Part shown: positions 1,343 through 64,000 of the stretch, in pieces
Position numbering within the stretch: position 1 is the first letter of the stretch
Layout: each line of letters begins with the position of its first letter
DNA from: Squalus acanthias
Taxonomy: Eukaryota
Length of the DNA: 64,000 bases
NCBI GenBank assembly: GCA_030390025.1
Contig: CM059432.1
Coordinates: forward strand, 93,498,001-93,562,000
Direction of reading: 5' to 3'
The notes under the pieces: model-generated
What the model was told of the DNA's origin: nothing
The model's input: only the letters and a program-made list of their open reading frames with translations
Database searches by the model: none
Made by a program: the position numbers and the translations under genes

Positions 1343-1620
1343 TGCGGAGATGCCGGTGTTGGACTGGGGTGGACAAAAATGAGAAGTCGCACAACACCAG
1401 GTTATAGTCCAACAGTTTTATTTGAAATCACAAGCTTTCGGAGCTGTTGCTCCTTCGTCGGGTGAAATAAAGAGATACAGAATCGCCAAAGCATATATAT
1501 ATGCTTTGGCGATTCTGTATCTCTTTACTTCACCCGACGAAGGAGCAACAGCTCCGAAAGCTTGTGATTTCAAATAAAACTGTTGGACTATAACCTGGTG
1601 TTGTGCGACTTCTCATTTTT
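1343..1620. mobile_element. Penelope-like 3' end arranged as a fold-back palindrome, flanked by a target-site duplication
   Basis: 1375-1497 and 1498-1620 are reverse complements with one mismatch (1467/1528). Direct repeat aattacaacttga at 1330-1342 and 1621-1633. Same sequence as the terminus of the GIY-YIG element at 19045-19170. Confidence 0.85.
1530..1567 (+). ncRNA. Minimal type I hammerhead ribozyme motif (variant core CCGACGA); mirror copy on - strand at 1428-1465
   Basis: tcac | CCGACGA | a-ggagc-aaca-gctcc | GAAA | gctt | gtga. Stem I tcac/gtga, stem II ggagc/gctcc, loopless palindromic stem III (AAGCTT), predicted triplet CUU. Confidence 0.65.
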
Positions 1621-4635: not shown

Positions 4636-4639
4636 AGAA

Positions 4640-5520
4640 TCTCTCCTGCCTTCCATCCTATCACAGACTTTCCCTTTGTTCTTTCCTCCCTGCCCCTGCT
4701 TAATAATCTCTCTTCTCTAACCTTTTCCAGTTCTGATGAAGGGTCCGCGACTTGAAACATTGGGCTGGATTTTGATACTGGGGCGGGTTGGGGTCGTGTC
4801 ATCCGCTTTTCGTGTTATCCACCCAACTGCAATTGGATGTGGGAGATTGATGCAATTTTAACCTAATTGGGCAATTGAGTTCCAGCATGTGGGAACGCAT
4901 GAACTAATTAGTGATTTCAGTCTGAAAGTCGCCTCTGATGATGTCATCATTGCTGCTGCATTGAAGGTCAGAGACTGCCTGGCCTTTGCTGTGAGAGGAC
5001 CTGGTTGCAAAATGAGCGAGCGAGGAGCGAGAGAATTTTTTTTACACCACCATTCCCAGATATGGCTCCTCCATCCCAGATTCCTGCCAGCCCCAGTCAC
5101 TGATAGTCAGCTATCCAAATGTGCTCCCGCCAGGTTTCACAATCGTGTTTCAGAACAGGCGTGCTTCACGGAGAGCAAGGGTTAAAATCACAAAGGCCTT
5201 TCAAAATGGCATTATAGAGCCAATTTAGTGCTTGTTAAGAGCCTTAACAGCCTATCCCGTCTCTTAGAGGCGGGACGGAGTCGGGACCAGCAGACACGAT
5301 TTAATGGAAATTGCGTAGAGGCGGGATGGAGGCGGACTTGTGCCTGCCCGCCAGTTTTTGCAATTTTAACCCCCCACACGCCTCCAAACCCGCCTCCATG
5401 GGTCAATGAAAATCCAGCCCATTGACTCTGTTTCTCTCTCCTCAATGCTGCCTGACCTGCTGAGTGTTTCCAGCATTTTCTGTTGTTATTTCAGATTTTC
5501 AGCATCCGCAGTATTTTGCT
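4640..5520 (+). mobile_element. HHR-bearing repeat (probably Penelope-derived 3' end), split by a MITE
   Basis: 4640-4761 joined to 5424-5520 reconstructs the repeat seen uninterrupted at 42320-42560; HHR core agtt-CTGATGA-agggtccgcgactt-GAAAC-att at 4729-4761. Confidence 0.8.
4762..5420. mobile_element. Harbinger-type MITE, family B (659 bp)
   Basis: Perfect 12-bp TIR gggctggatttt / aaaatccagccc; 3-bp TSD att (4759-4761, 5421-5423). Confidence 0.9.
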
Positions 5521-7589
5521 ATTGTGTTGGAGAAGACAATTGGGGTGAGGTTTTTTTTTGAGATGGCGGGGGGGGGGGGGGGGTGGGGGCGGGGGAGATG
5601 ATGCCAGTTACGAAGGAGAGAGGGACAGTGCCTGAGGAAAGACAGCCATTGACAATAGAAGCTAGCATGGGATGGGGGGGGGGGGTTAATTGGTGAGGGG
5701 ATCATGGGAGCAGTAGATGGGTCTCATGGATAAGATGAACTTGGAGAGGGCAGGCAGAGATGGGGCGTGAAACTGCAAAGACAGGGATCCTCGGCTAGGG
5801 AGCACACATTCTGCTGATTTTTAATTCACAGATAGGGTCAGAGATTTGAGGTATCAAATCCTGAGGACTGCACAGTACGAAGTGGTTGCCAGGAGCAGAT
5901 GATAAGAGATGGGCTCCATGATTGTCCCACGGAAGAATCCCTAGGAAAGTGTAAAGGCAAGTCAGGGGCTTGTTTGAGGAATTCAAGCCTGGAAAAAGCA
6001 GTGATAGGAGGAAAGAGGGATTAAGGGAGGCATGGTCCTGGACAAGGGAGAGATGAAAGGTTTAATGACCGGTGAGAGGAAGAGGAGGAGCGAGGTGTGC
6101 AGGGCTCAAGTAAGGTTGATAAAGCAAATTAGGAGTAATACAGCCAATGTGCGCATGAAAATTGACACAGCAACATTTCATGTTTCAATAGCACTTTATC
6201 TTCACCATATGAAGAAATGAACTGGCCTTCAAAACCATAAATTCCAATTTTGGTATGCTAAGGATGAAACAGAAAATCATCATGTGCTTGTGAACAGTAT
6301 GGCCTAATGAGCTATTCTCATGGAATGACTAAATAACAGTACATTCCCAAAATCAGACGTGAAAATGATTTTCATGCGAAAATAGCCTGCTCTAGAGTTC
6401 CCAGCTTTGGATGAAAACACACTGCATAATATCCATGCACTTGAGGCAGAAGCAGCTGCTGTGCTGGTGCCCTGGAAAAGTACAGCATACTTTAATGAAT
6501 ATCTCATCCACAGGGATGCTATTTTCACTCTTGGGTCATATTTTTAAAAAAAAGCTACATTGAACACATTGTTTCTTGTTTGCTAGTTTGAGGAAGGAAA
6601 GGCCTGTGCAAAGAGTGAAAATGTTCTGCTTGATATGACTGTATATTCATGGTGGTAATAATGGCACAAACACTTGCTCCTTTTAGCTTCACACTGGAAT
6701 TTAGGTGTGGCTCTGTGCTAGTTGACAATATTGTGCTAGACAGGAGTAAAATTGTCATCTCTTGAATTGGTCATAGCATCACTGTCTTGGACTTCAAACT
6801 GAATAATGATTCCCTCTTCAATGAATTGTGCATTCTTGCCCACATTATAAAAGGAGTTTCTAAGTTTGCCATTCATGTTATTTTTAGGGAAAAAGTACTG
6901 AAAAGCACAAGTTACAGGATAGATTATTATGCCAAGACAGAAATGGCCCTGATGTGGAGGCGAATTGAATTGTTGCTTTGGAAATAGTTGCACCAGCAGC
7001 AATAAGATTCCTCACAGGAGTTCCCAATCATTATTGAGCGATTGATTAATTGGGTCAGACCTGGCCACAGAAAATCCTAACATACTTTAGGTCATTGGGA
7101 AATAAACTTATGAAGCCTCTAAACTCTATTAGCATACACCTTCAAAAATAAAGATCACATAGTAGGCAGGATGCCACAGTGAATTATCACAACTATCCTT
7201 TCACCTCTGAAATCTGGGTTTAAAAGTCTACCCTGTTTACTTATCGTCAGGAGCTACTATGAAATGAGTTTGCACAGTCCAAATTCAATTTAGCGGTCTT
7301 AAGGCTAGAGCACAAAATTGTTCGTAATTCAAAACATATTAGCACAGTTGTTCAGTCAGGCCATAGAACTGGCTGGTGTGAGAAGTGAAAAAAAATGCAC
7401 TGGTGGGTCAGGGAATTTTTCTCTAGGGGTTGAAGCAGAGTAGCAGACTCTACTCTAGACTTGCCCCATGCTATACCTGATGCGAGAACACTTGACATGG
7501 AATTATGGTACATTAATTAAAAAAAGATGAAAACCCACAATACCAGCAATTCCATTGCTTTTGCCCATGAAACTGCTCAATACTAAGTA

Positions 7590-8350
7590 GCAATCATGCA
7601 CTAGGGAGGCCGGCCAGGAGTGCATTGGAATAGTCAAGTCTAGAGGTGATAAAGGCATGGATGAAGGTTTCAGCAGCAGATAAGTTGAGGGAAGGCTGGA
7701 GACAGGCGATATTATGAAGGTAGAAATGGGCAGTCTTAGTGATAGAATGGATATGAGGTAGGAAGCTCAATTCATGATCAAATATGACACCAAGATTGCG
7801 AACAGACTTGATCAGCCTTAGAGAGTTCGAATCAGTGGAAAGGGAATGGAGTTTGTGGCATGAACCAAAGACAATGGCTTCAGTCTTCGATATTTAATTG
7901 GAGGAATTTTCTACTCATCCAGTGTTGGATGTTGGACAAGCAGTCTGATAGCATAGAGACGGTGGAGGGTTTGAGAGAGGTGCAGGAGAGGTAGAGCTGG
8001 GTATCATCAGCATACATGTGAAAACTCACGCTGTGTTGCCGGATGATGTCACCGAGGGGCAGCATGTAGATGAGAAATAGGAGCCGGACAAGGATAGATC
8101 CTTGGGGGACACCAGAGGTGACAGTGTGGGATCGGGAAGAGGAGCCATTACAGGTAATTCGAGGGCTACGGTTGGAAAAATAGGAATGGAACCAGACAAG
8201 TGCAGTCCCATCCAGCTGGACGACGGTGGAGAGGCGTTGGAGCAGAATTTTGTGGTCAACTGTGTCAAAGGCTGCAGACAGGTCCAGAAAGACGAGAAGG
8301 GACAGATTACTTTTCTCGCAGTCAATTAGGATGACATTTGTGACCTTGAT
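7590..8350 (-). mobile_element. L2-clade LINE reverse transcriptase fragment
   Basis: ORF 7880-8065 contains FHMYADDTQLYLS...WMSRKFLQLNI; upstream codons give LLDLSAAFDTVD and GVPQG-like motifs. Confidence 0.85.
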
Positions 8351-9084
8351 TTGTCATTTGAATCAGGTTATATTTGTTCAAATATTGAGAACTCAGTCTG
8401 AAGAATCTGTAATGAAGAAGCTCTCCCTGTGTTAATTAACTCTTAAAATAATTTTTACTTGTACTGAAAATGTAAAGTCAACTGGGGAAATTGGCTTGTA
8501 GAATTTTGCTCCCCATATTTCTTCTTTCAATCTGGTAATTCCAGGCCTGAAATATTCTTCTCGTTTAACAGTATTTAGTTATATAGCACCATATCACTTT
8601 GAAACATCTCAAAATGCACCGTACTGTAAGCTACATAAAGTGCAGTAACTGTTATATAGGAACTTCAGCAACAACGTCAGGCAGATAGCAATGAGATGAA
8701 TGACCAGTTAATTTGTTTCTGTGTGGTACTGGTTGAGGGAGAAATGCTGCCTAGGGCACCAGGAGAACTCTCTACTCTTCTTGAAAAAGTGCAACAGAAA
8801 AAGAATATGAAAAGAAAGACAGGCATTTATGGAGTGCCTTGTGTGTCTCAGATGTCTCAAGCCCTTGATGCAATGAATGGCTTTTGAGAGTGCAATGACT
8901 TTTATTTAGGCAAATGCAACAGCATTTTGCATACACCAAGATTCCATAGTAGTAGGATGATCAGTTCAGGGATGGATGCTGGCCGGGAGAGGAGGGCTCC
9001 CCCCTGCTCTTTATCAAAAAATGTCATGGGTTCTTTAACGTCTACCTAAAGCTCTGGCACAAGCAAACATTTCATCAAATGAAG

Positions 9085-10095
9085 GAAGAAAGAACTTAAA
9101 TGAAAACAGAAAACACTGGAAATTCTCAGCCAGCATCTGTGGAGAGAGAAACAGAGTTAACGGGCTGGATTTTGATACTGGGGTCGGGTTGGTGTCGTGA
9201 ATCCCACATTTTGGCTTGTAGACCCGCCTCCATCGAGATGTGGCCAACCCACTGTATTTTCCCTTGCTTGACCTTGTTGAGCCCGCCCAGTGGGCTCAGC
9301 AGGCCAATTAAGGGCCACCCGGCAACAGGTGACGTCACAGATTGACATTTCATCTGTCAAGAGCTTTTGACAGATGAAATATCAGCGTTTGACAGCTCTG
9401 TGAAGCTGTCAAACACTGACAATATGATTTCTAACTTGAGTCCTTCCTCTCAGGCTGAGTTAGAAATCATTCCACCACAGAAAACAGAAGGCTGCAGTTT
9501 TTGACAGTACCACGGCTTTTCTGCTTTCTGTGCCGGTGAGATTTCTGACTCCCGAGAACTGAAGGGCTGACACCTGCAGGAGGAAGTTAAGGAAAGTAAA
9601 ACTTTTTCCAACACTTAGCACTTACCTTACACACTTACCTCTGCACACATGCACCCATCACTCACCTGCCCACCAGACATATCGACCCCTCCAACCCCTG
9701 CAGACCCACGGTCCGCCCCGATAACTTGGCGTGGTTGCCACCTGTCGGGAAGCCCACATTTCACCTTTTAAAATAGGGATTAGGCAAAAAACTGCCTGTT
9801 AACTACCTGTTAACAGGCAGTTAATTGTCATTAATCCCTTCCCGCCTCGGGGAGTTGGGTCTCAGCACAGGTCGGGTACCCGCCGCCAGCGAAACTGACA
9901 TGGAGGCGGGTTGGAGGCGGGATGGGGTCGGGACCCCCGAATCTGCAACTTTAACCCCCCACACGCCTCCAAACCCGACTCCACGGGTCATTGAAAATCC
10001 AGCCCAACGTTTCAGATCGATGACCTTTCATCGAAACTGGAAGATGTTAGAGATGAACAGCTTTTAAGCAAGTGCAGAGCCAGGAAAATGGAGGA
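9085..10095 (-). mobile_element. HHR-bearing repeat (same family as 42223-42560), split by a MITE
   Basis: Minus strand reads ctctaacatcttccagtttcgatgaaaggtcatcgatctgaaacgtt [MITE] gttaactctgtttctctctccacagatgctg. Confidence 0.8.
9162..10005. mobile_element. Harbinger-type MITE, family B (844 bp)
   Basis: Perfect 12-bp TIR gggctggatttt / aaaatccagccc; TSD aac (9159-9161, 10006-10008); ends shared with 4762-5420, interior different. Confidence 0.9.
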
Positions 10096-13019
10096 AGAAG
10101 TGCAGGAAAGAAGAAAGGACTTAAATTGATGTAACGTCTTTCATACCTCAACATCCCAAAGCGCTTCACAGTCTATGAAGTATTTTGTAGTGTAGTTACT
10201 GCTGAAATATATAGAATCATAGAAATTTATGGCACAGAAGGAGGCCATTCGGCCCATCGTGTCTGTGCCAGCCGAAAAGAGCCAGTAGGTAGTCAGTTTG
10301 CGTACAGCAAGGGGCCACAAACAGAAATGAAATAAATCACCAGATAATCTCTTTGGGGGCGTTGTTTGAGCGATAAATCTTGGAGTAAACCAACGTTAAC
10401 TAACCAATTTTCTATTCCTTCTCTCATCGTTCCTCCTCACAACCCACCAAGCAATTTTGTTTACAAACATTCAACAGCTGAAATATAATCTTGTACATCT
10501 TGTTTAGGATTAAAATAGTCTTAGTAAATCATTGACCTGCATTTTTCCCTCCTTTGAATGCAAAAATCAGTTTTGACAGTAATTCACCTCAAAATGACAG
10601 TCATCACCAGAATTTCCTGTCTCTCTCTGCTAAAAATACTAATGAATGAAAATGAGTTACCAATTAAAATATAGGATAGACACAGGGCTTTAAATTAGTA
10701 CTGGTCTGATGGACGAAAACTAATTAATTTACCAAAGGCATCAGTGATGATATAGCATACTTGGTCCAATGGACCCCTGAATGTACTTGGACACGATGCT
10801 CAGAGTATTGTCCTCCCAGACACAAGAAGCTTCTTGTGTAAGCTGCTTTTCTTTTAATTGAACAAACTGCCTCCATGTGGTACACTTTTAGTTTTCAGTA
10901 CACTGGTGGACTGGAGTTTCTTTACAGTGGACTGGTGATTATCAATTTACTGGTTCTGCTGATTAATGATCCTGTGGCTTCAATTTTCAGCTCTGTATTC
11001 TTTTGGCTGCATTTCCAACAGTTAGATGGCGTTTGCTGCTTTAGAGCAATGGTTTTAAAACTTGTGTGTGAGGGACCGCTGACAATATTGACGCACTCCC
11101 AGGGACCACGTGTTAACTTCCGAAAGACTGTCAGCTTCCCAAAGGAAAACAGTAATACACTGCAAAATCAACTTACTTTGTTAGTTTGCAACAGAAATAA
11201 TGCTAGTAATGCTAATACAAAAAAACTCAAATCTGATGGCAGATGCAAAAGGTACCTGATGATGTCAGGGACGCGCTGTGATCCAGCGATCCTAGTCAAA
11301 GAGCTGTGCTTTAATTCTTAAGGTGCCATTGTACCAATTCTTCTTTAGGATTTATAATTAGGAGAAAAATATATATAAAAAGTGGCCTGTTTCAGGATTC
11401 CAAGAGTTATCTTCTAATTTATTTTGTACAAGTTGATGTTTTTGGGACTGCACAGAGCTAACACCTGCTACAATACATATCATAGGATACATATTTTCAC
11501 CAGCAATAACCCAGAGAGAGAGTTCCCAATCTAAAATGTGGTGTGGTGGGGAGGTACTGTGGAGACCACACTGACCACGATCAGCTAACTTAACAGACCT
11601 GAGATTGAACCCAAAACCTTCCAATTCTGTATGAATCAGCTATTCGCTGCCTTGAACAACTGGTCCAACATATGAAATAACTGTATGAACTGATCTGGTT
11701 TTGCTCTCAGCATCAGAGGCTTTGAATATGCTGCTGCCATATAAAATTCCCTCAGTCACTAGTTGGCCTCTAACCGCAAAAGGACTCTTTGCAATTAGCG
11801 AAAGATCCATTATTGTATCAAATGCTCAGTGGCAATTAGACAAACACATCACACATTCCTTAGACGTTGCAGAAAAATCTCAGTGCAAAATTAGGTTCCA
11901 TCCAACACACATCAAATTAATCAGTTAGTTTTATTTGGACATCCATTATTCAGCTAACTATTCATTGTAATTACTTTTCCATCTGTCTGCCTGGTGAGCA
12001 TTGACTATGAAAACCATAAGATATGCACTGAGAATGAATATAATGCCTCTGACTGAACCGGCTGCATAATAATATTAAACAAATAGGATTACAGAATGCA
12101 ATGAACTGAAACTAATGTGATTTTCTATACCATAATAGTCATTGAAGGAAGCAAGCTGTTCCCTGGAGATTCTTTGGAACTGTTCAAAGAGCCGACTGAA
12201 GCACAGCACAACAGTTTTCCACCATCACTGCACCAGAAGATTTTGTCAAGTAATATGTTGGTATAATGACTATGAACTGTATCTTCCCTACTCCACATGA
12301 ATTTCTTAATACAATACTTGATCACTTTCCATGCAACTGCATGTGTAGAAGTTTTAAAAAAGGCCCTCCAGATACAGAGTTATTATTATGACACACCTTT
12401 AAGTTAGAAGCTTTTTCAATAAAGATTGAAGTAATAATTAGTGACTGCTCATTATCAAGTGTTAATTGCCTTTGACTCCTTCATGAATTCTCTTCTTCTC
12501 CCAACATAAGTAAATTGCTGCATCCTCCACAGACCATTTTCAAAACTCTCACAATCATGCCAGAATGGAGGGAGAGTCAGCTGTACCTAGATGCTTCTAA
12601 CAAGTTCAGGTTGCTACAACAATTTTGATGAGTTCCACGGTGTAAAACCAGATCAAATTTATATTCTGGATGAATATATCACCATCGTGACCATATTAAG
12701 TGATATTTTCACAGCAATGTGAAGGCTCTGTTACTTGCACTATTTTCAAATAATGGCTATTTTCTTTTTCTAACTATAGCAGCAGTTTAATGAAATTGAA
12801 ATAAAAAAAATACAAAATTCCATCATGTGAAGTATCTTTAAATCCTGACAACTCTGATACAAACAGAAGATGGTTTTAGATTTCACTGATGGGGATGACC
12901 TACAGAATCATCCAAACCAGTAAAATTGGTATTAACACAGCCTCTCTTCCCAGTAACATGTTCACCATTTCTTTAAGAGTACACAAAGCTCTTCAATTTT
13001 TCCACATATTACTTGTACA

Positions 13020-18360: not shown

Positions 18361-19134
18361 AGAAGCCCTACCAGGCCACCCATGTCTGGAAGCAACTTGT
18401 TTCAGCACAAGCTTTTAAATCAACAAAAAAGTACTTCATCACCAGCCAGACCATTCAAACTTTAACCAAGTATAATCCAGCAACTAACCTGTAAGTAGTT
18501 CATGATCCCTTTAAAGAGCGCTGGTTGGGGGGGAAGTGAGCGGTCCAAATTTCGTTTAATGCTTGTTCAGCTGTGCGAGGTTAAGACAGGGCATAGGCTG
18601 CAGCGTGGCGTTTGAAAATGCCAGGGCTGGCATCAAATCAATGTTGCACACTGATTGACATCATAATCTGCCTGCTCTGCATGCTGCCGGCAGTCGTTAG
18701 GTGCGCGTATGCAAACCCCTCTACCAAGATGGCATCCAGTGCACTTTCCGCCGGAAGTGTGCGCACGCATCTCTGACCCTATTTTTGAGCATTAGGTGGC
18801 CGCTTAGCACCAAAAAAAGTGCGCTACACTGCCCAATTTCTCCCCCTGTAGCTTTCTGTTATGAGATTTGTCCCCAACTCCAGAGAATTCAGTAAGTGGC
18901 ACTCAGCATCATAAATGTTTAAGTATGTTGTTTTAAAGCATCCTATATTCTCTTTCCACAATGCATTTCTCAATTACTGTTATATCACATGGATGAGACA
19001 ACCTAAATGACATCATCTCACTCACGTTGGTCAGAGTTATACTATGATGTGGAGATGCCCGGCGTTGGACTGGGGTGGACAAAAATGAGAAGTCGCACAA
19101 CACCAGGTTATAGTCCAACAGATTTATTTAAAAT

Positions 19135-19170
19135 TACAAGCTTTCGGAGCTGTTGCTCCTTCCTCAGGTA
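19135..19170 (-). ncRNA. Minimal type I hammerhead ribozyme motif in Penelope terminus
   Basis: Minus strand: tac | CTGAGGA | a-ggagc-aaca-gctcc | GAAA | gctt | gta; canonical CUGANGA core. Confidence 0.75.
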
Positions 19171-19504
19171 GAGTAGCTGTGAGAGAATCTCCCAGAATTC
19201 ACAATATAAACACAGAAAAAATGTATTCAAATCTTTCCCTACATCAAAGACACACTAAGAGCACAGCCAAGACAATGAGATGTGTCCCAGGGGGTCCAAC
19301 GTGACAAAACACCTGCTGGCTGCATATCCTCTGCAGTTGACTTTGGTTCTTGTGTTAGTTTTTTTTTTTAAAAAAGGCTGGAAAGACCGGCCATGATGTC
19401 AAGTCACGTTCTGTATCGTGACATGAACCCGATATCGCGATTGAGGCCATCCTCATGAGTGCGGAACTTGGCTATCAGTTTCTGCTCTATGATTTTGCGC
19501 TGTC

Positions 19505-21821: not shown

Positions 21822-22059
21822 TGTGGCGGATCGCCACCTAAAACGGGCATAATCCACTCTTCCGTCTGTGGACAAATTTCCAGCACCTTCCCTTTAAGGC
21901 ACCTTACCTTTAAGGAGAAGGGGGCGGGGCCTCAGGTTTTACCCAGAGAATTCTGGGAGCTTTTTCAGTCTGCCATTTTGTACCATGCTGTGATTAAAAA
22001 GTCTCTTGTTTAACACAAATGGATTCAGCCCTAATTCGTGTTTCGCGGCAGCCTCAACA
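21822..22059 (+). repeat. 5' LTR
   Basis: Reads identical to 25911-26148; contains GC box ggggcgggg and attaaa. Confidence 0.97.
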
Positions 22060-25910: not shown

Positions 25911-26148
25911 TGTGGCGGATCGCCACCTAAAACGGGCATAATCCACTCTTCCGTCTGTGGACAAATTTCCAGCACCTTCCCTTTAAGGCACCTTACCTTT
26001 AAGGAGAAGGGGGCGGGGCCTCAGGTTTTACCCAGAGAATTCTGGGAGCTTTTTCAGTCTGCCATTTTGTACCATGCTGTGATTAAAAAGTCTCTTGTTT
26101 AACACAAATGGATTCAGCCCTAATTCGTGTTTCGCGGCAGCCTCAACA
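25911..26148 (+). repeat. 3' LTR
   Basis: Reads identical to the 5' LTR; preceded by a polypurine tract and followed by TSD ctat. Confidence 0.97.
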
Positions 26149-42222: not shown

Positions 42223-42560
42223 ATTTTGTTTCTTAACTTGTCCCATTACCATCTCCTTTTGCCTTGCACCATCATCCCTTTTATCTTGCACCATCATCCC
42301 TTTTATCTTTTAATCATTCCTGCCTTCCGTCCTATCACAGATCTTCCCTTTTGTTCTTACCTCCCCTCCCCCCTTTCCCTGCCTCTGCACTTGCTTAAAA
42401 ATCTGTTACATCTCTAACTTTTTCCAGTTCTGAAGAAGGGTCATCGACCTGAAACGTTAACTCTGTTTCTCTCTCCACAGATGCTGCCTGACCTGCTGAG
42501 GATTTCCAGCATTTTCTGTTTTTATTTCAGATTTCCAGCATCCGGAGTATTTTGCTTTTG
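42223..42560 (+). mobile_element. Uninterrupted HHR-bearing repeat (probably Penelope-derived)
   Basis: Pyrimidine-rich leader, HHR, then ctctgtttctctctccacagatgctgcctgacctgctgag...gtattttgctttt; serves as the empty-site reference for the two MITE-split copies. Confidence 0.8.
42426..42462 (+). ncRNA. Minimal type I hammerhead ribozyme motif
   Basis: agtt | CTGAAGA | ag-ggtc-atc-gacc-t | GAAA | cgtt | aact. Stem I agtt/aact; palindromic loopless stem III (AACGTT); predicted triplet GUU at 42456-42458. Confidence 0.75.
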
Positions 42561-42695
42561 TAATAAAGAAAAAGATCTGCATTTCAAGTTCTTCTCAGGA
42601 AAAAGATTTGCGTAGCTACAGGTGCAAATAAAAGCAAAGAAATGTAGTGTAAGTATAGCAATGATTTTGTGATCAGGATTAACAATGTCCCATGC

Positions 42696-43134
42696 CATGG
42701 TCACGATACATGACGTGATCCGGACTCGAGTCGTCGTTGGCTTGTTCACAGATGTGATTCCCAGTAAAAAAGTAAAAATTTTCCCAGTAAAAAAGTAAAA
42801 ATTTTAAAGCTTATCGTTTTACATACAGACGGCAGCTTTTGACACGTTAGACCCCCTGCGACTCCACCTCATTGTCTCAGTTGTATCTTGCTATGTCTTT
42901 GATGTGGTACCTTCCTGGCTGACCTGATTAACTTTATCACACCTCGGCAGATAGTCAGGATGATTTAATTTAGTTGTCTGCAATTGTAAGGTACACATGC
43001 ATTGTTCTCTATCTATATATGCTTTGGCGATTCTGTATCTTTTTACTTCACCCGACGAAGGAGTAGTAAGCTCTGAAAGCTTGTGATTTCAAATAAAACT
43101 GTTGGACTATAACCTGGTGTTGTGCGACCTCTCA
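42696..43134 (+). mobile_element. Penelope-like 3' UTR and terminus with HHR motif at 43048-43086
   Basis: Starts catggtcacgatacatgacgtga, like the ORF end of the 19045 element; 43015-43134 matches the right arm of the 1375-1620 palindrome. Confidence 0.8.
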
Positions 43135-45307
43135 ATATGGTCAAAATAGCCCAACGTGTAATTAAGTGACAACGCATATTTTTCACAAAATGCAACTTTG
43201 GAAATTACTTATGGCTTGAAAAACAACTTGTATACCAAATACTTCAATATATAAACTGCATAAATCTCAATTTAAACATACTTTTATTGTTTGGTGGTTA
43301 AGTATAATAAAGTCCTGGCACACTGTAGCAATTTATACATAGAAATACATAGAAGTTACAACACGGAAACAGACATTTGACCCAACCAGTCCGTATCGGC
43401 AATCACCGTCCATGGGATCAAATAGTTCTAATCACAGTTAGCCACTTTGTTCCCATATCCCTTTCATCCAGCTATCCAACCTAATCTTGAATGTTGACAG
43501 TTTCTGCCTCAACCACTAACCCCAGAAATGAATTTCACAGCCTCACAACTGTGTGTGAGAAGAAGTTTCTCCTGTCCCCTGTTCTAAATCTCTTACATTT
43601 AATATTGTACCTATGGCCCCTAGTTCTTGACCCACCAACTATTGGAAACGACTCTGCTTCGATCTACTTTCATAATTTTAAACACTTCGATTATACTGCT
43701 CCGTAATCTGCGCGATTCTAAGAAAAAAAGCAGCGAGTTATGATGATCTGGAATGTACTGTCTGAAGGGACGGTGGATGCAGATTCAATGGTAACTTTCA
43801 AAAGTGAATTGGATATATACTTGAAAAGGAAAGAATTGCAGGGCTATTGGGGAAAGAGCAGGGCGTGGGACTAATTGGATAGCTCCTTCAAAGAACCGAT
43901 GGGCCAAATGACCTCCTTCTGTGCTGTATGATTCTATATTTACTATCCTGGTATCACCTGCAAAATTTTGACACCACTCCCTATAGGCCTATATCCAAGT
44001 TATTGATATGCACAGTGAACAGAAGTGGCTCCAGAACCCTAAGGGTCACCATTACCCACTTCCAACCATTCTTTTAAAAAGAAACTGTACTCAACTCCTA
44101 ATTTCTATTTTCTTTCTTCTAACCAATTTTTATTCCAATTGGGTTGCATTTAAACCATGGCCACTGTTCTGAAACTGGTACTGTGGGCTATGATGTGGAA
44201 GCAACAGTCACCTGGTTACACTGCACACTGATTGGAACCAATGTGGAATGACAGCTTCATGCAATTTAGACATTTATTCTTCAGTTTAAATTCAGAAAAT
44301 TGCAGAAGTGCAGTGAGCAACAGCAACTGGGGAAAAACAGTTTGATCCTCTCACTCTGCAATCCCAATGCCTAATTCTTAACCGCTAAGAGTGTCTACCC
44401 AGAGCATCCACTTCATCCTAACATGAACAATATTCCATACAAAGATTAAAAAGTCCACAGGAGGTCCAATGGATCACCTAGACACTTAAATTGCAGCTGA
44501 CCACCTAACTGTAATTATACTGCTGACAGTGCAAACTCAAATCCAACGTTATAGCTATTTTTCACGATGATGCACCAGCTGTTACAAAATGGATGTGAAA
44601 ATACAGCATTAATGCACCATTAAATTTGTAATCAGGAAGCTTTTAGAGGTTAGTTACTGATCCAGGTCTCCATCTCCTGTATTGGTCAATCCTCTAATCA
44701 TTAAGCTACATTTAAAATACAACATACTACAGTCTTGATTGAAACAGAAGTGGACAAATAAATACCAAGTGGACTAATTGAAAACCAACTTTAAAAACAA
44801 GAAAACAAATTGTACACTACTGCGATGACAGAAGCATATATTCCTGGTTGATTTTGAGCTGTAGTTTGATAAACAGACCCATTGAAAAACAGTATATATG
44901 GTACTGGGATAAATTGCAGTGCTTCGAACAAAGGAGTTTAACTAAATGGACTGTGAAATGAATCAGACGGGTGGTTGGGTAGAACAACAGTTTTTTTGGA
45001 ATGTTAATGTGATTAGATATACCGCGACAATTTTGGTTAGTTCTTATAATGTACATATATCATGTAGACTTCATAAATATGTACAGCATATTAAAATGGG
45101 GCTTAGGAAAGAAGCAGCTGTACTTAGTTATTTAATAGTTATCATTATACATTGAAAAAAATTAAAAGCAATATTTGAGCTGCCACATTTGCCTACATAA
45201 TAACAGTAAAATAAAGTAATTGATTGGCTGAGGTGTTTGGGACACCTTGAGTATAAGAGGAGGCACTACTAGTTGATCTCCAGTGGTGTTGCACACTGGG
45301 AGTCAAG

Positions 45308-62420: not shown

Positions 62421-62439
62421 GCCCTCCGAGCCCACCCTT

Positions 62440-64000
62440 CCAATACCCTCTCCTCCTCCCCTCCGATACCTTCTCCGATCTCCTCTACCCCCCGATACCC
62501 TCTCCTCTCCCCCCCCCGCCCGATACCCTCTCCCCCCCCATCCCCGCTCCTCTCCCCCCCCATTCCCTCTCCACTGCCCCCATCCCCTCTCCCCCCCATC
62601 CCCTCCCCTCTCCTCTCCCACCCCTCCCCTCTTCCCCCCATCCCCTCCCCTCTCCTCTCCCCCCCCTCCCCTCTCCCCCCCCTCCCCTCTCCTCTCCCCC
62701 CCTCCCCTCTTCCCCCCCATCCCCTCCCCTCTCCTCTCCCCCCCCTCCCCTCTTCCCCCCCATCCCCTCCCCTCTCCTCTCCCCCCCCTCCCCTCTTCCC
62801 CCCCATCCCCTCCCCTCTCCTCTCCCCCCCCTCCCCTCTTCCCCCCCATCCCCTCCCCTCTCCTCTCCCCCCCCTCCCCTCTTCCCCCCCATCCCCTCCC
62901 CTCTCCTCTCCCCCCCCTCCCCTCTTCCCCCCATCCCCTCTCCTCTCCCCCCCCATCCCCTCTCCTCTCCCCCCCATCCCCTCTCCTCTCCCCCCCATCC
63001 CCTCTCCTCTCCCCCCCCCATCCCCTCTCCTCTCCCCCCCCCATCCCCTCTCCTCTCCCCCCCCCATCCCCTCTCCTCTCCCCCCCCCCATCCCCTCTCC
63101 TCTTCCCCCCCCCATCCCCTCTCCTCTCCCCCCCCCATCCCCTCTCCTCTCCCCCCCCCATCCCCTCTCCTCTCCCCCCCCATCCCCTCTCCTCTCCCCC
63201 CCCATCCCCTCTCCTCTCCCCCCCCCATCCCCTCTCCTCTCCCCCCCATCCCCTCTCCTCTCCCCCCCATCCCCTCTCCTCTCCCCCCCATCCCCTCTCC
63301 TCTCCCCCCCATCCCCTCTCCTCTCCCCCCCATCCCCTCTCCTCTCCCCCCCATCCCCTCTCCTCTCCCCTCTCCTCTCCACACCCCCCCATCCCCTCTC
63401 CTCTCCCCTCTCCTCTCCACACCCCCCCATCCCCTCTCCTCTCCACACCCCCCCATCCCCTCTCCTCTCCCCCCCCCATCCCCTCTCCTCTCCCCCCCCC
63501 ATCCCCTCTCCTCTCCCCCCCCCATCCCCTCTCCTCTCCCCCCCCATCCCCTCTCCTCTCCCCCCCCCATCCCCTCTCCTCTCCCCCCCATCCCCTCTCC
63601 TCTCCCCCCCATCCCCTCTCCTCTCCCCCCCATCCCCTCTCCTCTCCCCCCCATCCCCTCTCCACACCCCCCCATCCCCTCTCCTCTCCCCTCTCCTCTC
63701 CACACCCCCCCATCCCCTCTCCTCTCCACACCCCCCCATCCCCTCTCCTCTCCACACCCCCCCATCCCCTCTCCTCTCCACACCCCCCCATCCCCTCTCC
63801 TCTCCACACCCCCCCATCCCCTCTCCTCTCCACACCCCCCCATCCCCTCTCCTCTCCACACCCCCCCATCCCCTCTCCTCTCCACACCCCCCCATCCCCT
63901 CTCCTCTCCACACCCCCCCATCCCCTCTCCTCTCCACACCCCCCCATCCCCTCTCCTCTCCACACCCCCCCATCCCCTCTCCTCTCCACACCCCCCCCAT
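62440..64000. repeat. C-rich polypyrimidine minisatellite (core atcccctctcctctcc), running off the window
   Basis: Tandem units of about 21-26 bp; the last ~340 bp are a regular 26-mer catcccctctcctctccacacccccc. Confidence 0.95.

Follow-up and report, generated by a model that had tools for sequence, protein, structure and literature searches.

Harbinger MITE insertions at a hammerhead-like motif of a Penelope-like repeat in Squalus acanthias: probable nesting at a hot spot of sequence

In a 64,000-nucleotide stretch of the Squalus acanthias genome (assembly GCA_030390025.1, contig CM059432.1, positions 93,498,001 to 93,562,000 of the forward strand; hereafter, the window), two Harbinger MITEs (miniature inverted-repeat transposable elements) interrupt copies of a Penelope-like repeat at the same three bases, the NUH cleavage triplet of a hammerhead-like motif. 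The insertions are independent and very probably share their position because the DNA around the triplet partly matches the general palindromic target of the MITE family and because this site is present tens of thousands of times within the repeat. Targeting of the ribozyme by the MITE family is not supported; the insertions are best regarded as ordinary nesting at a hot spot of sequence, and the components, namely Harbinger target preference, nesting of MITEs and Penelope hammerheads, are each of a known kind. In the literature searched, with subscription journals mostly outside the search and Repbase outside it as well, we found no paper on Harbinger or MITE insertion at hammerheads or Penelope elements.

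The interrupted and uninterrupted repeat copies

The two composites (host repeat plus MITE) and an uninterrupted copy of the host repeat consist of the following features.

4638..4761, + strand: 5' part of copy 1 of the Penelope-like terminal repeat, 73% identity to 42312-42458
4729-4761, + strand: hammerhead-like core of copy 1, AGTT-CTGATGA-A-GGGTC-CGC-GACTT-GAAAC-ATT
4759-4761, + strand: left duplication ATT of copy 1, read from the sequence
4762..5420, + strand: Harbinger MITE 1, 659 bp, GGGCTGGATTTT...AAAATCCAGCCC; similar to the termini of transposase-bearing elements over its first 208 bp and its last 321 bp
5421..5525, + strand: ATT at 5421-5423 (right duplication), then the 3' portion of host copy 1, 91% identity to 42457-42561
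9095..9161, - strand: 3' portion of host copy 2, including the duplication GTT (AAC on the + strand, 9159-9161), from sequence comparison
9162..10005, + strand: Harbinger MITE 2, 844 bp, second subfamily, in a 9-member cluster of 802-849 bp
10006..10116, - strand: 5' part of host copy 2, with GTT (10008-10006), GAAAC, stem II and core; 81% identity to 42458-42350
42312..42561, + strand: uninterrupted Penelope-like repeat (family A), with the hammerhead-like motif at 42426-42462

The initial annotation of this DNA had given the coordinates of both MITEs and of the intact motif (42430-42462), and all of them are confirmed, together with its observation that in both composites the 3-bp target-site duplication is the NUH triplet, ATT in copy 1 and, on the host strand, GTT in copy 2. 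The uninterrupted copy has CTGAAGA at 42430, the triplet GTT at 42456-42458 and AACT at 42459-42462; in copy 1, ATT 5421-5423 is directly followed by GACTCTG, where GACT is the 3' strand of stem I. By sequence, the core is set apart from this strand, in agreement with the earlier claim that the insertion parts the two strands of stem I. Two features had been overlooked: the core of copy 2 is degenerate, with TCGATGA (10034-10028) rather than CTGATGA, and the C15.2-G16.2 pair is disrupted by the ATT of copy 1.

Both MITEs (659 and 844 bp) carry the 12-bp perfect terminal inverted repeats GGGCTGGATTTT and have the first ~38 bp (95%) and the last ~104 bp (83%) in common, with interiors that cannot be aligned. 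They run in the same direction on the + strand, hence opposite relative to their respective hosts, and belong to separate clusters (46 and 9 members) of copies inserted at the hammerhead site. Alignment thus reproduces the initial description of common terminal repeats, different lengths and interiors, and opposite orientations relative to the host. Because the interiors are unrelated, the composites reflect two separate insertion events, as had been proposed, and the different clusters uphold this view. Descent of both composites from a single ancestral insertion, by duplication and by inversion through the terminal repeats, would fit the common terminal repeats and the distance of only 3.7 kb but is barely conceivable: not only are the interiors unrelated, the lengths different (659 versus 844 bp) and the clusters distinct, but the duplications are ATT/ATT in one case and GTT/GTT in the other, the hosts differ in core, loop and extent, and both subfamilies are found at the hammerhead site in both orientations on many chromosomes. 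A single insertion followed by inversion was rejected on account of the unrelated interiors.

The MITE family, its partner and its target

The exact 22-bp left end of the MITE is present in 9,736 copies in the genome. Among 100 unselected copies (the first 100 on one chromosome, L001-L030 and L121-L190, a restriction that belongs with the points against our explanation gathered below), the right end is found nearby in 89, and 62 of these 89 have a perfect 3-bp duplication, with none showing a duplication of 4 or 5 bp. The 62 perfect-duplication sites yield a palindromic target, approximately (C)ARA[CG][AT]C-WWW-G[AT][GC]TCT(G), so that both the 3-bp duplications and the target-sequence preference invoked in the initial annotation are seen here. 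The host site, CTGAAAC-GTT-AACTCTG, comes near the consensus in its right half and matches the left half in part, through the conserved GAAAC, while the G of the triplet is disfavoured.

In 17 of the 89 copies, the two duplication copies differ at one base, in 9 of these by an A/T swap. At the hammerhead site, where the target is known, one side of several junctions carries T or A in place of G (L124, L179, L241, L272 and L085); such mismatched duplications may contain bases carried over from the donor site. These observations cover the 100 unselected copies and L228-L287. The right terminal repeat differs by 1.3% per base, an estimate that is biased low because the repeats were found with at most 2 mismatches.

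Harbinger terminal repeats begin with GGG, as do those of the elements described here. The 30 best DDE_Tnp_4 loci of the genome (3.5 kb each) contain no such MITE ends; the autonomous partner was found instead among 18 long candidates (copies with no right end near), 7 of which encode a transposase. One of these, L294, spans 4,719 bp, is flanked by the duplication AAT/AAT and encodes both a DDE transposase (DDE_Tnp_4, E 3.9e-38) and a Myb-like protein (Myb_DNA-bind_5, E 3.8e-09). The first 208 bp and the last 321 bp of MITE 1 match L294 at 86% and 89%, with the transposase frame of L294 located between these two segments, whereas MITE 2 has only ~50 and 105 bp in common with it. The identification of the elements as Harbinger MITEs is thus borne out by the 3-bp duplications, the terminal inverted repeats and a DDE plus Myb/SANT partner with the same ends. 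From these shared ends, we infer that the MITEs are mobilised in trans by an L294-type DDE transposase together with a Myb/SANT-like protein. The hammerhead site also holds the transposase-bearing L301 and the 3,154-bp L299 (GTT/GTT).

The long Harbinger elements with the MITE left end (L288, L293, L294, L296, L300 and L301) measure 3.9-6.2 kb in the cases with an identified right end, their transposase and Myb-like frames face each other, and L293 retains an open transposase frame of 370 aa. A related Harbinger transposase family, ~50% identical to the partner of the MITE, is represented by very many near-identical open copies of 391 aa (63,886 first-look DDE_Tnp_4 candidates, 150 of them scored), which probably stem from a recent burst.

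Two known systems are close to the one described here. Zebrafish Harbinger3_DR has the target AAACAC-CWG-GTCTTT (PMC3016246, citing Sinzelle et al. 2008). Judged by target and gene content, the likeness extends to a 3-bp duplication within a palindromic target of ~15-17 bp with similar flanks, and to the DDE transposase and Myb-like gene of the long copies; the central triplet differs, CWG as against WWW, and the target in the shark is looser. Rice mPing and Tourist-type MITEs, as presented in PMC4561436, are alike in their short non-autonomous form, in carrying the ends of PIF/Harbinger masters and in their A/T-rich 3-bp duplication, but mPing prefers TAA/TTA, whereas here any WWW occurs and the information resides mostly in the flanks, 7 bases to either side. 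The excision model outlined there for mPing involves staggered cleavage at the duplication (PMC4561436).

Counted at GAAAC-RTT by exact one-flank patterns, 71 of the 9,736 copies lie at the hammerhead site in one orientation, compared with 67 in the opposite orientation, an even distribution. Both host flanks were recovered at 20 of the 30 loci fetched per orientation, which, scaled to 71 + 67, gives ~92 copies; compared with the 65,898 empty sites (exact matches to the 16-mer TGAAACRTYRACTCTG in the 3.71-Gb genome), this is ~500-fold above a uniform expectation. The insertions with both host flanks at the NUH triplet occupy at least 55 distinct loci. A target-specific transposon would have most of its copies in one repeat; here, the hammerhead repeat accounts for 3 of the 100 unselected copies, by a looser criterion, and for 138 of the 9,736 by exact one-flank patterns. 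The share of the MITE family at this site is 1.4-3%, and ~0.15-0.4% of the host copies are occupied.

The hammerhead repeat is one of seven recurring repeat sites that together hold 36 of the 100 unselected copies: 3 at the hammerhead, 9 at a LINE (long interspersed nuclear element) coding site, which we take to be CR1-like, 10 at a LINE-tail site, 3-4 at each of three others, and 4 in the MITE's own family. Per copy and in one orientation, the LINE site is used 14 times more often (142 of 9,563, or 1.5%) than the hammerhead site (71 of 65,898, or 0.11%). The claim that the family recurrently targets the ribozyme core accordingly holds for the recurrence, in both orientations, and lacks support as regards the targeting of a ribozyme, given 3 copies in 100 and the 14-fold greater use of the LINE site. 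The self-nesting hot spot comprises L014, L127, L143 and L174, which are inserted into sequence resembling the interior of the 844-bp subfamily.

Under the explanation that we favour, the transposase and the Myb-like protein, supplied in trans, would read the flanks as double-stranded DNA, with the left half-site supplied in part by GAAAC and the right one almost entirely by the stem I strand AACTCTG, and the centre of the target would fall on the NUH triplet. A cut with a 3-base stagger would then duplicate this triplet, which coincides with the NUH of the RNA motif, and CpG decay of GTT to ATT would improve the match to the target and raise the insertion rate. Insertion is predicted to disable the motif, since it moves the 3' strand of stem I away from the core; such disabling would be a by-product of little consequence, confined to the occupied fraction of the host copies, mostly short fragments.

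Target motif versus ribozyme

The triplet itself distinguishes between a general target and the ribozyme. The 65,898 empty sites comprise 6,669 with ATT and 59,229 with GTT, compared with 20 ATT/ATT, 17 GTT/GTT and 3 GTT/ATT-discordant pairs among 40 occupied sites, so that ATT is over-represented at occupied sites (odds ratio 10, p = 4e-11). Only 3 of the 40 pairs are discordant and, therefore, the change to ATT preceded insertion; CpG decay after insertion was rejected as the origin of ATT/ATT on the same count. Host age was rejected as the cause of the excess as well. Occupied hosts do lean old (28 old, 6 young and 6 unassigned, n = 40), but divergence is equal between the groups and the excess persists within the older host subfamily, where ATT:GTT is 14:12 as against a 12% share of ATT among the empty sites (p = 4e-7). 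A target matrix built without the hammerhead sites predicts an 8.6-fold preference for ATT over GTT, in the same direction. Intact cores are not enriched at occupied sites, with 17 of 40 occupied hosts compared with 33 of 56 empty ones (p = 0.15), and some occupied hosts start inside stem II.

A second family of Penelope-like hammerhead repeats, family B, serves as a negative control. Its motif copies in the window are as follows.

1423-1466, - strand: family B motif
1529..1572, + strand: family B motif
19129-19172, - strand: family B motif
43048-43091, + strand: family B motif

A GIY-YIG frame lies upstream of the family B motif in 8 of 27 stretches. The two families are similarly abundant: 70 random stretches of 10 kb each (700 kb) hold 21 family B and 18 family A copies. 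Non-CpG divergence is 2.3% both for family B and for the MITE, which implies similar age. The target matrix scores 0.5 for family B versus 83 for family A. In the one orientation searched, no MITE left end lies within 5 bases after the family B sequence TCCGAAAGC (past GAAAGC), compared with 70 left ends recovered by a like pattern in family A.

These results bear on the possibility that the hammerhead core is targeted specifically, as RNA, as an R-loop or as catalytic sequence, and is thus inactivated, which was the reading of the initial annotation. In favour of such targeting, the insertions coincide exactly with the NUH triplet at no fewer than 55 loci that retain both host flanks, and the excess over uniform is ~500-fold. 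We nevertheless regard it as highly improbable, because 97 of the 100 unselected copies lie elsewhere, family B has no insertions in the one orientation searched, the canonical GTT is disfavoured 10-fold, intact cores are not enriched among the occupied hosts and strand bias is absent (71 versus 67). The triplet and core counts and the zero in family B largely refute this reading, and the notion of a hammerhead retroelement serving as the landing site of a DNA transposon is not supported on the same grounds, ATT being favoured over GTT and the great majority of the copies lying outside this repeat.

Several observations, in addition to the confinement of the unselected sample to one chromosome, weigh against a general target as the full explanation. 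The composites are 3.7 kb apart in the window, whereas 0.03-0.12 pairs are expected within 5 kb, a figure for the MITE subfamily alone; the pair was chosen by eye, and the wider MITE family is 2-3x larger than the subfamily behind this expectation. Part of family B may post-date the MITE burst, in which case some of its copies would have arisen too late to serve as targets, and its zero count covers one orientation. The independent-position matrix predicts 27-42 insertions at the hammerhead site (bootstrap 9-92 over three training sets, with upper limits of 63-92) compared with the ~92 estimated, a shortfall of ~3-fold for the GTT and ATT forms alike. A neighbouring position, 8 bp downstream within that host repeat, has a matrix score of 100 versus 83 but received 2 insertions versus 71 and, being so overpredicted, shows that the matrix alone fails to account for the exact position. 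The LINE control is underpredicted still more, 7-32 insertions in both orientations being predicted and 142 found in one. From the misfits at the hammerhead and LINE sites, it follows that the matrix is good only to about an order of magnitude, and within this spread of its predictions a middle position is taken by the hammerhead site. The expectation that insertions in the hammerhead are no more frequent than a short motif would give, which the initial annotation had named as fatal to its reading, thus holds approximately, to the ~tenfold precision with which the motif model predicts.

Both triplet forms exceed the matrix ~3-fold, and there are 71 insertions versus 2 at a neighbour of equal score, which would fit a general motif complemented by a modest extra pull, be it from more distant flanking sequence, the shape of the DNA, the inverted repeat of stem II or repeat chromatin, with the Penelope tail as a mildly favoured safe haven. 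We consider this unlikely, given that the LINE site, which lacks a ribozyme, exceeds the matrix by more and that 23 of the 40 occupied hosts have no intact core, many having lost the CTGANGA half and some starting within stem II. It is similarly improbable that a structure- or context-based preference beyond the motif (~3-fold over the motif model, 35-fold over the equal-scored neighbour) singles out the hammerhead-bearing Penelope tail as a shared safe-haven landing pad. If the residual excess were structure-based, it would amount to a DNA transposon reading a ribozyme-coding hairpin.

With a general target as the preferred explanation, the family illustrates how a transposon with a soft 15-17-bp target yields hot spots of exact position in abundant repeats that partly spell this target, and how such hot spots can mimic functional targeting; here, one half-site is furnished in part by the conserved hammerhead GAAAC. 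The repeat presents identical targets by the tens of thousands, some with GTT and others with ATT, and provides a natural read-out of the preference of Harbinger among targets and of the formation of its 3-bp duplications.

The Penelope-like host repeats and other features of the window

The longest of 57 empty-site loci of family A have ~1 kb of upstream sequence in common, with variable 5' ends, and many empty-site matches form minus-then-plus pairs, with inverted partners separated by tens to hundreds of bases. Both features, the differing 5' ends and the inverted partners, are consistent with Penelope-like elements (PMC8557442). Seven long copies of family A contain a GIY-YIG frame (...LLYIGETKRRLGDRFAEH...) that ends ~270 bp before the motif and is recognised by the Pfam GIY-YIG model with E 6e-4, under the curated cut-off. 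Taken together, the frame, the 5' truncation and the inverted partners suggest that the family A host is a Penelope-like element.

The motif of family A has the features of a minimal hammerhead ribozyme: the CUGANGA and GAAA boxes, NUH, an extra base before stem II and a palindromic 15.2-16.2 pair. The minimal hammerheads of metazoan Penelope terminal repeats (Cervera and De la Pena 2014, PMC4209133) are similar in the boxes, the extra base and the 4-bp stem I, as well as in the palindromic 15.2-16.2 without loop 3, the position ~270 bp after a GIY-YIG frame and the inverted 5' copies. Family A departs from them in having R10.1-U11.1 (A-U in 13 and G-U in 7 of 20 copies) instead of the usual G-C, which family B has; the G10.1-C11.1 pair is called highly conserved in this source, although it is outside the descriptor of minimal hammerheads (PMC4209133). 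The same source proposes that minimal hammerheads act as dimers and reports little cleavage of such motifs in vitro, and none as monomers (PMC4209133).

Against the identity of the motif as a ribozyme, the Rfam models gave no hammerhead match in the window at E <= 1, mir-3149 on a palindrome being the only hit, and folding of the family A motif as a monomer recovered stem II only (z 0.4), with no hammerhead fold. Across 20 copies of family A, 95% of the cells pair, yet there are zero two-sided changes and shuffles perform no worse. As the copies of both families were chosen by the hammerhead motif, the invariance of their core is a circular argument. All three stems, however, differ in sequence between the families and still pair: stem I is AGTT/AACT in family A versus TCAC/GTGA or TTAC/GTAA in family B, stem II is RGGTC/GACCT versus GGAGC/GCTCC, and 15.2-16.2 is CG versus GC. 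Ribozyme identity is made more likely by this conservation of architecture with different but pairing stems, so that, by motif and context, the family A motif is likely to be a ribozyme.

The stretches of family B in the window extend over 1375-1620, 19045-19175 and 43011-43142, and three of the four motif copies have CCGACGA in place of CTGACGA. The first stretch is a 99% inverted pair, the centre of which gives a spurious Rfam match to mir-3149. Elsewhere in the window, a degenerate tandem array of short units starts at 62431 and continues past the window end at 64000, and a 238-bp direct repeat is present in two 100% identical copies (21822-22059 and 25911-26148) located 4.1 kb apart, which could be the terminal repeats of a young element.

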